64,000 nt of DNA from Octopus vulgaris (GCA_951406725.2 OX597842.1:7068001-7132000); one strand, 5' to 3'; positions 9,497 through 51,860 are shown, counted from the first letter of the stretch. Numbers and translations are program-made. Notes: generated by a model not told the origin, from the sequence alone.

Positions 9497-10117
9497 TTTT
9501 CCATTCTTCCCAAGTGTTAAACTTTACACTTGCTTGTTGTTCCCTTACTTGCCTTCCTCTTTTGTTTTCTGTAAATTTGGACTGTATGTATGTATGTATG
9601 TGTGTGTGTGTGTGCATGCGTGCGTGTGTACGTACGTACGTGCACACATACACATCTTATATTAGTAGATGTCTTTCACTCACACAACATTTCCCTCATG
9701 ACACAGATAAAAAAGCCAGGCTGGAAAAGGGGGTAAGTGACATCATCTACAAATACAGAAGGATTGCCATTTGATCTACCACTGCAGTTATATTTTGTTT
9801 TTTTACAAATTCCCCATCTAAATATAGGCATTTAGCACAAGCAATATTTCACTGACTTCAGTCATGTCAGCTTCCTTGCTGAACGATGTCAACAGGGTCT
9901 GCTTGTCATTTAGTGATGTTATAACACTTAACTAGTTTTTCCTTAATTCTGATTTAGGTGGATAACTATGCAAAATACTTTTGTGATTTCTTTCGTAGTG
10001 AGATTTCAAGTTCCTGGCCTTGTATTGAATAGGTGAAATATGGAAAATAAGGAACAAAGGTACATTATTTACATTATTTACAACTGATGGATATTTGTCC
10101 TCATCTTGTTTGTTGTT

Positions 10118-10163
10118 AACACAGCGTTTCAGCTGATATACCCTCCAGCCTTCATCAGGTGTC
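10118..10163 (-). ncRNA. Minimal type-I hammerhead ribozyme motif (cleavage triplet mutated to GCU)
   Basis: Minus strand reads GACAC CTGATGA A GGCTG..CAGCT GAAAC GCT GTGTT; helix I is GACAC/GTGTT. Confidence 0.65.
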
Positions 10164-10399
10164 TTGGGGAAATTTCAAACCTGGGTTCTCATTCCTAAGG
10201 TATTCTTCAATGTTGCTGTTGCTGTTGTTATTATTATTATTATTATTATTATTATTATTATTATTATTATTCAGGTCACTGCCTGGAATTGAACTCAGAA
10301 TTTTGGGGTTAAGAGTGAGGGCTACTAACCCCAGGATTTGATCCAGGCAGTGACCTGAATAATAACAACAACAACAACAACAACAACATCGAAAAATTC

Positions 10400-10440
10400 C
10401 TGATGAAGACTGGATGGTATATCAGCCGAAACGTTGTGTT
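10400..10440 (+). ncRNA. Minimal hammerhead motif, same family, 5' strand of helix I lost
   Basis: CTGATGA A GACTG..CAGCC GAAAC GTT GTGTT. Confidence 0.6.
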
Positions 10441-10924
10441 AACAACAAACAAGACGAGGACAAATATCCATCAAATGTAATGTTCCTTATTTTCCATATT
10501 TCACCTATTCAATACAAAGCCAGGAACTTGAAATCTCACTACGAAAGAAATCACAAAAGTATTTTGCATAGTATTTTGTCAAACGAGATGTCAAGCGGTG
10601 ATGGGGAGACAAACACAGGCACGCACACATCATAGATATGTACATATATATATGTGCGATGAACTTCTTTCAGTTTCCGTCTACCAAATCCACTGACAAG
10701 GCTACAGTAGAAAACACTTGCCCAAGGTGCCATACAGTGGGATGAATGGGACTGAACCCAGAACCATATGGTTGGGAAGCAAGCTTCTTACCATACAACA
10801 ATATATATATATATATATATATATCATAGTTAATCCAAACATGAACAAGCAAGAAGATGCAACAACACGAGGACATGGAATAAGTACAGTGTTATTGGAC
10901 GTTCAGGAAAGGAAAAGAAAGAGG

Positions 10925-10960
10925 ATTTCACATTTTGAGCAGAGCTCTTCGTCAGAAATA
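10925..10960 (-). ncRNA. Degenerate minimal hammerhead within a short non-autonomous PLE-like repeat (~10830-11020)
   Basis: Minus strand reads ATTT CTGACGA A GAGC TCT GCTC AAAAT GTG AAAT; homologous to 49583-49617. Confidence 0.55.
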
Positions 10961-11644
10961 TAGAAAAAGTCCAAAGAAGGGAAGACGGAGAAAGAAAATC
11001 GCCAACAATACACACACACGGGTGTCAAAAGTAGCACCTAATTTCTGTTGATATGTATAACTTCCAAATTGGGAGATACATTTCACTCCTAATTCTTGTT
11101 CTACGGGTTTGGGATATCAAAATGATAAACGGTCCAGATTCAGTAACTGTCAGTAACAACATACAAAACAACCAGGAAAAGCATGATTGCCAGAAACAGG
11201 CGCTACTTTTGAATCACCCTGTATGTGTGTGTGTGTGTATATATATATATATATATATATATATGTGTGTGTGTGTGTGTGTGTGTGTGTGTGTGTGTTT
11301 GAGGTGGAGGTCCATCAACAAGTTAAACAACATATATTATCGACCTAATTTTATCAATATTGTTTTAAATAGATAATACGACAATGGCCATTATGAAAAG
11401 CTAAGTGTGACAAGTAGCAAAAGATAGCAGAAGCGATATCAAATTAATTTTCCTATTTGCTACATTGAAGTGCAACACAACACACAGTAGTCTACCTTGA
11501 AAAAGAAAAGTGAAAGTTAACACAGAATATGATAAGGACTTAGCATTATAATTTATATGTATCTACATGATTAGAATTTGAATGGGAAATGAATAGAGTC
11601 ATAGAGTACAAACCTAAAATAAAAGGAATAGAATTTTTTTTTTT

Positions 11645-12028
11645 TATTCTTTCATTTGTTTCAGTTATCTGACTGTGGTCATGCAGGAGCACTGCCTTAA
11701 AGGGTTTTAGTCGAAGAAATCAACCCCAGGGCTTATTCTTTGTAAGCCTAGAACTTATTCTATCCGTCTCTTTTGCCAAATTGCTATGTTATGGGGATGT
11801 AAACACACCGACTTTGGTTGTCAAACAATGATGGTGGGGGGGACAAAAACAGACACACATAAACATATACATATATATGCGACGGGCGTTCAGTTTCCAT
11901 TTACTAAATCCACTTACAAGGTTTTGGTCAGCCCGAGGCTATAGAAGCAAGGTGCCACACAATGGGACTGAACCCGGAACCAAGTGGTTGGAAAGCAAGC
12001 TTCTTACCACATAGCCACGCCTGCCCCT
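11645..12028 (-). mobile_element. SINE family A copy
   Basis: Reverse complement of the family A consensus, diverged. Confidence 0.85.
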
Positions 12029-12510
12029 ATATATTTTTTACATAACCGTCATTTAGTTATATTTTTTCATTGGAAGGTAACATGTATGTATATGATATGT
12101 AGATAATACAAAACAGTACTGAGTCGCTGACCAGGACATGGTCAGGACATGTAACAAGAATGGGAGAGTCAAGGTTCCCACATCAAGTTTTATCCAGTGA
12201 GCTCACTTCAAGATAAAGACCATGGGGTTGCCTTCTTCAAAGATAAAAGGATCGACTCAAAGCAACACCAAAAGCTACTGGAATTTAGCCTAAACTGTGT
12301 AAAACACAAGCCCAAGACCGTACCAAGTGGCAGTGTTTTATCACCATCTGAACTAAAGACGAAGCTACCAGAAGAGAAAAGGAAGAAATCACATGAGAAG
12401 AGAGAAAGGCTCAACAAAGTCAACCTCATCCTCAACCAACAGTGAATGCCATCGACTCTTCTATGCAAGAATTGGTCTACAGAGTCACCAATGGCATCAC
12501 CAAAAAAGAA

Positions 12511-49582: not shown

Positions 49583-49617
49583 GTTTCTGACGAAGAGCTC
49601 CGCTCGAAACGTTAAAC
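49583..49617 (+). ncRNA. Minimal type-I hammerhead ribozyme, intact, inside a short non-autonomous PLE-like repeat (~49495-49705)
   Basis: GTTT CTGACGA A GAGC TCC GCTC GAAAC GTT^AAAC. Helix I is GTTT/AAAC, and the palindrome AACGTT replaces helix III (dimer type). Confidence 0.85.
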
Positions 49618-50513
49618 TCTTCTTCTTCGCTTCCTTCCTGAGCGTCCAATAATACTATATTTGTTCCACGTCCTCGTGTTGTGTTTTCATGTTTGGATTA
49701 ACTATATATATATATATATATATATATTACTCTTTTTCTCTTTTACTTGTTTCAGTCATTTGACTGCGGCCATGCTGGAGCACTGCCTTTTTTTAGTCGA
49801 GCAAATCGACCCCGGGACTTATACTAAGCCCAGTACTTGTTCTATCGGTCTCTTTTGCCGAACCGCTAAGTGACGGGGACGTAAACACACCAGCATCGGT
49901 GTCCCCCATGCTAGGGGGACAAACACAGACACACAAACACACACACACACATAGATATATATATACATATATACGACAGGCTTCTTTTAGTTTCCGTCTA
50001 CCAAATCCACTCACAAGGCATTGGTCGGCCCGGGGCTATAGCAGAAGAAACTTGCCCAAGATGCCACGCAGTGTGTGTGTGTGTATAGTGAATTTTTCAT
50101 ATATATGTATGTGTGGGTGTATATGTAGCCGGTCAATCGGTTTTACGCTCGAGAAAGTGAAAATTTGTTCGGCAAGGTATTGGCATATATGCTGGAGCCT
50201 CGTGGAGCTTTAGGTGTTTTCGCTCAATAAACACACACAACGCCCGGTCTGGGAATCGAAACCGCGAGTCCGCTGCCCTAACCACTGGGCCCTTGCGCCT
50301 CCACACACACACAGACACGCATACACACACACACACACACACACACACACACACACACACACACACACGGGGGTGGGGCAGAATGAGTAATTTCTGTCTT
50401 TTTTTTTTGTCATTTTATCATATGTAATACAGTTCTGTATTTAAGAAATGAGGAATTATTTATATTTAACGTATGTTTGTCCCCATCCTGTTTCTTCGGC
50501 TGATATAGCCAAG

Positions 50514-50552
50514 ACACCTGATGAAGGCTTGGAGGGTATCTCAGCCGAAACA
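50514..50552 (+). ncRNA. Hammerhead motif with cleavage strand deleted (family of 10118/10400)
   Basis: GACAC CTGATGA A GGCT..AGCC GAAAC, then jumps to aaacaagatg. Confidence 0.5.
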
Positions 50553-50573
50553 AACAAGATGGGGACAAATATC

Positions 50574-51000
50574 CGTCTAATGTAAATAATTCTTCCCAAG
50601 TTTTCGAAATCATTATTGCGTCATTATTTTGACCTGGTTCATCATACTTAATAATAAAAATTAGTCAGCATAGTTGTTAAGTTCAGACAGTTCGAAACAT
50701 AAGAGGTAGCTCCTCTTTTTCCAAGAAATTTTCGTCTGGGGAGTGTTCTACTATTTTCACGTTAGTTTCACAAGCAGGTTGTTTCTGTTGATCGGAATGC
50801 GAGTATATATGTGTACAACACTCCCCAGACGAAAATTTCTTGGAAAAAGAGGACTTACCGCTTTTGTTTCGAACTGTCTGAACTTAACAACTATGCTGAC
50901 CAATTTTTATTATTAAGTATGATGAACCAGGACAAAATAACGACGCAATACTTACAATGTAATGATTTCGAAAACTTAGGAAGAATTATTTACATTAGAC
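50574..51000. repeat. ~175-bp inverted duplication adjacent to hammerhead repeat
   Basis: 50574-50748 is the reverse complement of 50817-51000. Confidence 0.9.
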
Positions 51001-51015
51001 ATATATATGTTTCAA

Positions 51016-51405
51016 CGCAGGAGTGGTTGTGTGGTAAGTAGCTTGTTTACCAACCACATGGTTCCGGGTTCAGTCCCACTGCGTGGCACCTTGGGCAAGT
51101 GTCTTCTACTAAGCCTCGGGCCGACCAAAGCCTTGTGAGTGGATTTGGTTGACGGAAACTGAAAGAAGCCCGTCGTATATATATATATATATGTGTTTGT
51201 GTGTCTGTGTTTGTTCCCCTAGCATTGCTTGACAACCGATGCTGGTGTGTTTATGTCCCCGTTACTTAGCGGTTCGGCAAAAGAGACCGATAGAATAAGT
51301 ACTGGGCTTACAAAAGAATAAGTCCCGGGGTCGAGTTGCTCGACTAAAGGTGGTGCTCCAGCATGGCCGCAGTCAGATGACTGAAACAAGTAAAAGAGTA
51401 AAAGA
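51016..51405 (+). mobile_element. SINE family A copy
   Basis: Consensus match. Confidence 0.9.
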
Positions 51406-51773
51406 ATAATGAAAGGGTAAAATTAATTAATTATTATTAATTTTACTACGTAGTTCGGTACGTTAAAATAACCTTTTTAGGTAAAATTATACAAATATTC
51501 TATAATTATAAACATAATTATAATTAGGGGTCAGCTAATTGCTTCGCCCTGCACCGAATTTAGAAATAGGAGTTAAAATACCTTTTCCGCTACTATAAAT
51601 ATTTTAACACCTTTTTCTAAATTCGGTGCCTGGCGAAGCAATTAGCTGACCCCTGATTATAATTGTTTATAATCTATTAACGGTTTTTAAAAAAAAAATA
51701 ACTTGCTAGCATTCCCCTTCATCATATACGCGGTAATCACATTCGGTTAAAATGACTTATTGATGTGTTTTGT

Positions 51774-51860
51774 TTCCCTGATGAGATGATTGCATTGTTT
51801 TACATAATTTCTATTCCCTCCGGAATGATCTCAATGCTTTCTTCGAAACATATGTTGGAA
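51774..51860 (+). ncRNA. Type-I hammerhead ribozyme, intact core
   Basis: TTCC CTGATGA GATGATTGCATTG..CAATGCTTTCTTC GAAAC ATAT GTT^GGAA, with palindrome ACATATGT. A ~60-bp-arm hairpin lies upstream at 51518-51664. Confidence 0.85.

Follow-up and report, generated by a model that had tools for sequence, protein, structure and literature searches.

The hammerhead motifs in a 64,000-nucleotide stretch of Octopus vulgaris DNA (the window) are probably pLTR remnants of Penelope-like retroelements or of non-autonomous elements derived from them, and four of the neighbouring fold-backs would be ordinary insertion scars, two of which appear to have been remodelled later by repair. At these four sites, hammerhead-bearing repeats are joined head-to-head at their 5′ ends (9965-10572, 27598-27670, 37333-38444, and 50450-50595), and each of the fold-back centres (10.3, 27.6, 37.9, and 50.5 kb) is located on the 5′ side of the hammerhead core, none of them being microsatellite. 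Insertions of Penelope-like elements are known to carry an inverted, 5′-truncated copy at their 5′ end and a tail on one side (PMC8557442), the palindromes at their junctions have been attributed to self-priming (PMC3846280), and siRNAs arise from their inverted repeats (PMC3681739). Since the main claim, including self-priming and dsRNA, is already published for Penelope-like elements, the window adds examples and not a mechanism.

Fold-backs and hammerhead motifs in the window

The six fold-backs that a sequence-only reading of this DNA had placed beside hammerhead motifs are all real, self-BLAST returning an inverted match at each of them, including 50565-51010 and 51505-51673. In the window, a fold-back finder returned 27 rows, of which many were microsatellite noise, whereas each of five shuffles yielded none; rows consisting only of microsatellite were excluded from the fold-back list, and the loci at 20378-20505, 5198-5233, 14817-14890, and 46920-47154 were missed by the finder. 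Sites with fold-backs are of more than one class. A truncated SINE-1 copy at 20742-20956 forms a background fold-back with a TA-rich loop and no hammerhead inside; it is perfect (0/95 substitutions) and the only fold-back with no substitutions. The structure at 12513-13096 is MITE-like background whose long terminal inverted repeats belong to the same family as those at 33403-33589/34440-34626; it was considered as an insertion fold-back and rejected because its terminal repeats are shared with 33403-34626.

A descriptor for type I hammerheads gave six matches at a score of at least 20, against a shuffle mean of 0.08; matches scoring 15–17 (58140, 56825, 52536) and two lower ones were left uncounted. 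The matches are minimal type I cores with a short stem I and a palindromic or absent loop III, a form known from Penelope-like elements (PMC4209133). The end repeats carry this minimal type I hammerhead to different degrees, and only three of the eight motifs at the six sites, those of family C at 27597 (−), 37620 (−), and 38159 (+), pass the descriptor. Family A is degenerate: the motif at 10127-10167 (−, core 10158) has a changed cleavage triplet and is missed by the descriptor, a 41-nt deletion has removed the 5′ strand of stem I from the motif at 10400-10440 (+), and the core at 50518 (+) has lost its cleavage site, so that an essential part is missing in all three. The motifs of family H (20463, −) and family E (core 51778, +) are hammerhead-shaped by eye only, the latter (51773-51867, +) belonging to a multi-copy repeat that ends in (TA)n near 52060. 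Searched to E = 10, the regions 9950-10600 and 20170-20520 matched no Rfam hammerhead family, and none appeared among the whole-window matches that were listed (150 of 340); the minimal motifs may lie outside the Rfam hammerhead models. Within the window, no tandem array covers any hammerhead motif, and the pairs are inverted. Family A also shows, by eye, a B-box-like word and an anticodon-like arm, and this possible tRNA-like head had no Rfam tRNA match to E = 10. A search for other copies of families A and B gave 0 matches in viral, metagenome, and prokaryote genome contigs.

The proposed co-occurrence of hammerheads and fold-backs was borne out in this one window, in which eight of 14 motifs lie within 300 bp of a fold-back against 2.0 expected (circular shift, p = 0.005), the lists of motifs and fold-backs being hand-curated and partly post hoc. 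The test used 11 fold-backs with arms about 80% or more identical, and the mirror hammerheads 10158 and 37620 were collapsed. Motifs were also enriched when counted as clusters (6/11 against 1.75 expected, p = 0.004) and when restricted to the descriptor (4/7 against 1.0, p = 0.016). Enrichment was likewise seen over a SINE control run within this window, with 3 of 43 SINE-1 copies near fold-backs (6.1 expected) after two of 45 matches, a mirror copy and a 34-bp piece, had been dropped. It is unlikely that all fold-backs were made by snap-back break repair at AT-rich self-complementary tracts, with hammerheads lying near them through shared (TA)n targets. Such repair would account for the eight of 16 fold-back loci that lie at least 550 bp from any hammerhead motif, for the fold-backs centred on (TA)n at 23814-23971 and 23981-24054, for the position of the substitution-free fold-back on a SINE, and for the fold-back at 50565-51010, which is younger than its element. 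However, enrichment near fold-backs is significant for hammerheads but not for (TA)n tracts (11/49 against 6.9 expected, p = 0.13), and the centres of the four head-to-head sites are neither microsatellite nor 3′ of the motif.

Architecture of the individual sites

At 10 kb (site A), repeat family A forms a continuous head-to-head palindrome (9965-10572) centred at ~10317, with a 7-bp stem, a 14-nt loop, and arms (9965-10159/10399-10572) that are 86% identical by self-BLAST. The two arms share, past the end of the element, a terminal stretch of 92 bp: this 3′ flank (10481-10572, +) is absent from the family-A copies at 50.5 kb, is likely host DNA, and has an inverted duplicate at 9965-10056 with one substitution. 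The core differs at 7 of 82 positions against 1 of 92 in the flank (p = 0.027). No target-site duplication was seen at the outer junctions of site A, and elsewhere microsatellite flanks would mask one.

The palindrome at 37333-38444 (site C) spans 1.1 kb at 93.6% identity around an 8-nt loop (~37890-37897) and contains the hammerhead cores 37620 (−) and 38159 (+). Its inner 167 alignment columns hold 17 substitutions and its outer 369 columns five (Fisher p = 7e-6), and the breakpoint score was reached by none of 1000 permutations. The left arm probably ended, originally, in the segment 37218-37334 (−), which consists of a family C tail and a 66-bp 3′ piece. The segment 37335-37567 (−) repeats, in inverted orientation, the 3′ end of the right arm together with its (TA)n and some of the flanking SINE-2, and is likely a later repair addition; when 37335-37567 is subtracted, the copy is colinear with that at 27 kb. 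The 66-bp direct repeat at 37269/37502, which is the only candidate for a direct pLTR repeat, is read as secondary. Because the flank is less diverged than the core in both palindromes (5/369 against 17/167 and 1/92 against 7/82), the alignments suggest that the host flank of these two palindromes is much younger than their cores and was added when later repair used the inverted repeat as its template; the arm taken as original and the stretches taken as host DNA are likewise putative assignments. Such two-age palindromes with a late-copied host flank are the mildly new point of this analysis. No clear A>G excess as an editing signature was seen between the arms (5/22 at site C, 4/15 at site A, and 2/12 at 50.6 kb).

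The flank could also have been acquired in one step, which we regard as quite unlikely: the snapped-back strand would copy the cDNA and continue into the target, so that the element duplicates 90–170 bp of host flank, and the other cut end would be primed separately. The 92 bp common to both arms at 10 kb fit such a run-on, as does the left arm at 37.3 kb, in which a portion of the flanking SINE is present and the tailed piece forms the cap, and extension of both strands by the enzyme has been seen in vitro (PMC11167929). A single event predicts a single age, however, and at site C the flank is much less diverged than the core (p = 7e-6), as it is, with weaker support, at site A (p = 0.027). 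The one-step reading could still be saved if the outer arms had undergone gene conversion afterwards.

The remaining sites are smaller. A 5′-truncated family C copy at 27427-27641 (−, hammerhead core 27597) carries a 51-nt tail (27427-27477) and, at its 5′ truncation, a perfect 29-bp fold-back with a 15-nt spacer (27598-27670). At 50450-50595, a pair absent from the sequence-only reading, two family-A copies meet head-to-head at ~50510 with the broken core 50518 (+) and 10/61 substitutions between the arms, and the junction is crossed by a contig labelled as organism C. In the adjoining fold-back at 50565-51010, ~185 bp of DNA that lies 3′ of the element and is mostly low-copy are folded back around a loop at ~50750-50815; the centre lies in low-copy host DNA ~220 bp 3′ of the element's end, the outer junction is the 5′ end of a SINE-1 copy, and no head-to-head 5′ junction is present. 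This fold-back is younger than its element, as its arms show 12/185 substitutions against 10/61 in the element's own pair. At 51505-51673, an unrelated repeat, F, is folded back with its centre ~190 bp 5′ of motif E, and the homologue of this repeat at 18649-18719 is hammerhead-free. The latter two loci had been counted as insertion fold-backs and do not fit that reading, the first lying 3′ of its element and being younger, the second belonging to a different repeat. Finally, a 33-bp hairpin encloses the hammerhead-like motif of family H (20378-20505, −, core 20463; 70% over the whole hairpin, arms 29/33); it is ambiguous, as it may have arisen by snap-back at the 5′ junction or may be a long stem I native to the ribozyme.

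Relation to Penelope-like elements and other systems

A one-sided tail, as in Penelope-like insertions, is found in family C: 37218-37334 matches 27427-27544 at 86%, and the ends at 37505 and 38277 fall short of these by 51 nt, so that a 51-nt tail is present at 37218 and 27427 and absent at 37505 and 38277, this evidence being two tailed ends of one family. As a raw count, (TA)n stands at the 3′ side of nine of the nine hammerhead-family copies listed, and family C at 38277 also runs into (TA)n; family A ends AT-rich and not in (TA)n, and the tail at 27 kb ends in another repeat. Penelope-type elements exist in this genome, as is shown by a decayed reverse transcriptase (RT) of the C-terminal GIY-YIG type at ~6718-8650 (−). 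Classification of this remnant (6.7-8.6 kb) as Naiad-like was rejected, the GIY-YIG-like domain of its relatives lying at the C-terminus. With relatives' proteins of at least 200 aa, tblastn gave matches at 6.7-8.0 kb only and none beside hammerheads, and an N-terminal profile matched best at ~8.4-8.65 kb with nothing at E<1 elsewhere in the window, the queries being relatives of one remnant, which other clades could escape. A word-indexed protein search for motif-linked ORFs returned nothing, and Pfam returned nothing in six ORFs near motifs or repeats (among 12 scanned).

With EN+ Penelope-like elements (Penelope/Poseidon, Neptune, Nematis, and Hydra; PMC8557442, PMC3846280, PMC4209133) the copies have in common the head-to-head arrangement, small junction palindromes, a tail at one end, (TA)n targets, and minimal type I hammerheads; they differ in that there is no linked ORF or direct pLTR tandem and no readable target-site duplication, in a tail of 51 nt rather than 30–40, and in two palindromes that include younger flank. 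Non-LTR retrozymes, which are non-autonomous and pLTR-derived, are likewise short, non-coding type I hammerhead repeats with no ORF (10.64898/2026.07.22.740005). Active ones, however, are direct tandem units with a hammerhead each (10.64898/2026.07.22.740005), whereas the copies here are solo or inverted and do not form two or more direct tandem units with complete hammerheads. Naiad/Chlamys elements show a similar tandem/inverted insertion structure and microsatellite bias but are without canonical hammerheads (PMC8557442). MITE and fold-back DNA transposons have long terminal inverted repeats, which suits 12513-13096 and 33403-34626, but none of the six originally proposed sites recurs as a complete palindrome within the window. 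Snap-back templated insertions and inverted-repeat-templated break repair leave a hairpin junction whose microhomology spans a few bases, an inverted copy of nearby sequence, and a further junction with microhomology. This pattern suits 50565-51010, 20742-20956, and the insert 37335-37567; it differs in having no retroelement tie, and the copies here are 100–230 bp.

Formation of the palindromes and their significance

Following the biochemistry in PMC11167929, the element's GIY-YIG endonuclease would cut AT-rich DNA and the RT would extend the cut ends from two RNA start sites, which would put a tail on one end only. The products of this step would be the short copies visible in the sequence, most of which end in (TA)n, with the 51-nt tail on some ends of family C. 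A truncated cDNA end may then fold on a few of its own bases and copy back, a chemistry that fits the observed geometry; the outcome would be a head-to-head palindrome with its centre on the 5′ side of the hammerhead, extending over 29 bp at 27.6 kb, ~60 bp at 50.5 kb, and the whole copy at 10 and 37.9 kb. Later, a break in one arm would have been repaired with the other arm as template, and copying would have continued into the flank of the template arm. At 37.3 kb this would have put a piece of SINE between a pair of 66-bp repeats, and at 10 kb it may have added the 92-bp flank. The fold-backs at 50565-51010 and 20742-20956 and those centred on (TA)n would be separate snap-back repair events, and the ribozyme a passenger marking the element. 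The earlier proposal that insertion creates inverted duplications through snap-back priming therefore stands for four sites, with self-priming likely, although as an already published anatomy of Penelope-like elements.

A role for the ribozyme itself was not supported. That it drives duplication, its self-cleavage or hammerhead fold giving the priming end for the second strand, is highly improbable: enrichment is local around the motifs and the junctions at 20.4 and 50.5 kb lie within ~10 nt of the core, but the centres at 10.3 and 37.9 kb lie 80–270 nt 5′ of the cores and none at the cleavage site. Moreover, the structure does not need the ribozyme, since Naiad/Chlamys elements form it without canonical hammerheads, hammerhead mutants still insert normally in vitro (PMC11167929), and four B-type motifs in the window (three family-B copies and one B-like motif) have no fold-back. 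The ribozyme is thus probably only a marker of the element and not the cause of the fold-backs. Fold-back chimeras are a known artefact, and the arms of 20742-20956 are identical, but it is scarcely credible that the palindromes are assembly or amplification chimeras, given that the arms of the six proposed fold-backs differ by 4–16%, with indels, and that, in four DNA contig runs compared over 36900-52060, contigs with other organism labels span 50433-50678 and 50712-50852 (organism C) and cover 50887-51010 and 37706-37822 (organism B). As such contigs cross both junctions, an assembly artefact is excluded for at least 50.4-51.0 kb. SINE contigs dominated these comparisons, and no empty site was seen among the 15 joints listed.

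Perfect stems of 12–148 bp are predicted in the fold-backs. Of the 9314 bases of the window that take part in local inverted pairs, 7145 fall outside the six sites, so that some three quarters of its potential for local pairing come from elsewhere. It is possible, though we put it forward tentatively and with more doubt than belief, that head-to-head Penelope-type insertions are lasting seeds of palindrome growth, in which pair-templated repair copies hundreds of bp of host flank and SINEs into the opposite arm and draws new fold-backs (37.3 kb, 10 kb, and perhaps 50.6 kb). If so, hammerhead-marked sites would be a genome-wide, family-specific source of short-loop, high-identity host palindromes and hence of editing substrates. 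Hammerhead motifs can be used to locate insertion scars whose ORFs are gone, and two-age palindromes, if general, would tie retroelement scars to ongoing local rearrangement and provide a testable source of strong duplexes.

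Hammerhead-like motifs and fold-backs in the window

The window is AT-rich animal DNA that is rich in SINEs and (TA)n tracts. All six fold-backs that a sequence-only reading had placed next to hammerhead motifs (9966-10572, 20383-20500, 27598-27670, 37336-38443, 50574-51000 and 51518-51664) were recovered as inverted matches by self-BLAST, which also returned an unlisted pair at 50450-50595, and a seed-and-extend finder reported 27 fold-back rows compared with none in five shuffles. The proposed co-occurrence was borne out as well: eight of 14 motifs lie within 300 bp of one of the 11 better fold-backs, compared with 2.0 expected (circular-shift p = 0.005), in a single window and with hand-made, partly post hoc lists. 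Descriptor-only motifs gave 4/7 (p = 0.016), while SINE-1 midpoints, used as control, gave 3/43 compared with 6.1 expected; with all 16 fold-back loci the values are 9/14 motifs (p = 0.006) and 6/43 SINE-1 copies. Treated as independent clusters, 6/11 fall within 300 bp (1.75 expected, p = 0.004) and 4/11 within 100 bp (1.1 expected, p = 0.02), and after removal of three fold-backs not attributed to elements 4/11 clusters stand against a background fraction of 0.11. Counted from the fold-backs, half (8/16) lie no more than 300 bp from a motif, the other eight at least 550 bp from any.

A type I hammerhead descriptor yielded six matches with a score of at least 20 in the window compared with 0.08 in shuffles. 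Its matches at 20273-, 38647- and 49587+ (core position and strand) are additional to those listed before, and 27717+ and 62116+, each with a single mismatch in the core, reach scores of 17-20. Three of the eight motifs at the six sites pass this descriptor; 20463- and 51778+ were called hammerhead-like by eye, all three cores of the hammerhead-bearing repeat family A are broken, and an Rfam scan covering 9950-10600 and 20170-20520 in full returned no hammerhead family. Further hammerhead-like repeats of several families occur at 20273(-), 27717(+), 38647(-), 49587(+), 62116(+), 10955(-), 16263(+) and 22404(-), and such repeats cluster at 20273/20463, 27597/27717 and 38159/38647.

Structure of the individual palindromes

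At 27427-27670 lies a truncated copy of family C whose 5' end bears a perfect fold-back of 29 bp and whose 3' end is extended by 51 nt, the tail. The palindrome at 37333-38444 (site C) contains mirror hammerheads of this family around an 8-nt loop. Its right arm lacks the tail and runs into a (TA)n tract, next to which stands a SINE complete at the 3' end, and its left arm is the mirror image that breaks off inside the SINE; beyond lies a third 66-bp element piece, differing from the right arm at 3/66 positions, and then the tail. Substitutions amount to 17/167 in the inner and 5/369 in the outer part (p = 7e-6; 0/1000 permutations; split at 38075, best breakpoint 38053), and removal of 37335-37567 makes the left arm colinear with the 27-kb copy. 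In our reading, site C goes back to an old insertion of two head-to-head copies, tailed on one side only; the outer part of the right arm and the SINE would have been copied into it by later repair. The (TA)n tracts flanking the SINE at 38277-38510 are end points of both element C and element I.

Site A (9965-10572) is a single palindrome centred at approximately 10317, where a stem of 7 bp closes a 14-nt loop; each arm consists of an outward-pointing family-A repeat followed by one and the same 92-bp stretch. These 92 bp, missing from both family-A copies of the second head-to-head pair at 50450-50595 (arms differing at 10/61), differ between the arms at one position compared with 7/82 in the element part (p = 0.027). 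Site A may be intronic, because an ORF resembling an exon and encoding an RNase_T exonuclease domain lies at 4738-5055 (-) (Pfam E = 1.9e-7) and CpG is depleted across 4-14 kb (o/e 0.3-0.6). The head of family A (10285-10350) contains a word resembling a B box and an arm resembling that of an anticodon, which would suit a tRNA-headed SINE with a hammerhead tail; no tRNA match to it was found in Rfam.

At 20378-20505 a 33-bp stem (29/33 paired) surrounds the motif. The second family-H copy (22404) has the 3' strand in common but gives way to (TA)n immediately 5' of its core, so that the stem may equally be native stem I or a snap-back. The fold-back at 50565-51010 is centred approximately 220 bp past the element on its 3' side, and its outer junction abuts a SINE-1 copy at the latter's 5' end; its arms differ at 12/185, closer than those of the 50450-50595 pair, and it is likely younger than the element insertion, despite stopping inside the older stem. 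The remaining one, 51505-51673, is a fold-back of the unrelated repeat F, whose right arm is the copy, since homology to 18649-18719 covers the left arm and the loop; it may have arisen where element E has its 5' junction, or else separately from that element.

Background fold-backs and neighbouring features

Background fold-backs in the window include two centred on (TA)n (23814 and 23981), a MITE-like family whose terminal inverted repeats are long (12513-13096, with TTAGGG-like repeats near its centre, and 33403-34626), and a 96-bp fold-back without substitutions (0/95) on an old truncated SINE-1 at 20742-20956, which would either have arisen very recently or result from misassembly. The ribozyme-free pair 8031/8682 of the sequence-only reading sits within a decayed Penelope-like RT ORF at 6718-8650 (-), interrupted by SINE-1 copies; its relatives carry a Cys-rich linker followed by a C-terminal GIY-YIG-like (endonuclease) domain, and the remnant possibly belongs to the Hydra clade. 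Other features are a 47-bp tandem repeat at 105-4566 (~94 copies, nearly CpG-free), a perfect 36-bp palindrome at 5198-5233 with no repeat or motif nearby, a mariner-type transposase remnant at 13617-14349 (+; PF01359), a SINE-like unit of 183-184 bp arrayed in tandem at 17204-17918 (3.9 copies) and 28772-29324 (3.0 copies), with 98-99% matches across the two arrays, an LTR-retrotransposon integrase ORF at 56145-57593 (-; PF00665, PF17921) and a full-length U2 snRNA match at 63653-63847 (-; 157.7 bits).

Origin of the fold-backs

The hammerhead copies show four hallmarks of Penelope-type insertions; they are only probably such insertions, because the defining ORF was found beside none of the motifs in the window, and they do not qualify as active tandem retrozymes. 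Geometry, tail, targets and age steps, all observed, lead us to infer an enzymology and an order of events that probably accounts for the sites: Penelope-type insertion would have produced fold-backs, followed by inter-arm repair at one or two sites, with unrelated snap-back repair elsewhere. The element's enzyme would cut AT-rich DNA and extend the cut ends, the copy would be truncated at its 5' end, prime itself and be copied back, repair between the arms would follow later at one or two sites, and the remaining fold-backs would stem from snap-back repair unrelated to elements. The proposal that insertion creates inverted duplications by snap-back priming survives in part, as self-priming at element copies; some fold-backs are better read as unrelated repair, and a causal ribozyme is very improbable. 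The main idea is already published: in PMC3846280, inverted-junction palindromes are best read as self-priming, head-to-head is the most frequent arrangement, and sequence outside the pLTR (the element's end repeat) can be captured or inverted. PMC11167929 describes cutting and extension on both strands, with two start sites that fit the tail, PMC4209133 describes minimal hammerheads in pLTRs, PMC3681739 maps siRNAs to Penelope inverted repeats, and 10.64898/2026.07.22.740005 treats retrozymes as non-autonomous derivatives; file S1 of PMC8557442 lists cephalopod families that may bear on these repeats.

General repair at (TA)n targets common to elements and fold-backs is a rather unlikely explanation; 11/49 such tracts lie within 300 bp of the better fold-backs (p = 0.13). 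One-step run-on into the host flank appears slightly less likely still; the two levels of arm divergence at site C and, more weakly, at site A speak against it. Against the ribozyme as cause of the duplication, hammerhead cleavage is dispensable in vitro (PMC11167929). That the palindromes are artefacts is extremely unlikely, with arms diverging by 4-16% at the six sites and, among four contig runs mapped over 36900-52060, contigs of organism C at 50433-50678 and 50712-50852 crossing both junctions there and contigs of organism B covering 50887-51010 and 37706-37822. Summed contig depth, which is not copy number, resembles that of unique contigs at 50704 and 50935 and is ~30-90x higher at 51827; at most, this hints at low-copy DNA in the 50.6-kb arm and at a repetitive family E.

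A literature search with most subscription papers outside its scope returned nothing on octopus hammerhead fold-backs or on late copying of host flanks into such palindromes. For the putative step to dsRNA and editing, predicted pairing allows perfect stems of 12-148 bp, but of the 9314 bases that the window has in local inverted pairs, 7145 fall at positions other than the six sites. Tentatively, insertion scars might seed later palindrome growth that incorporates host DNA, a reading to which we give a low probability.
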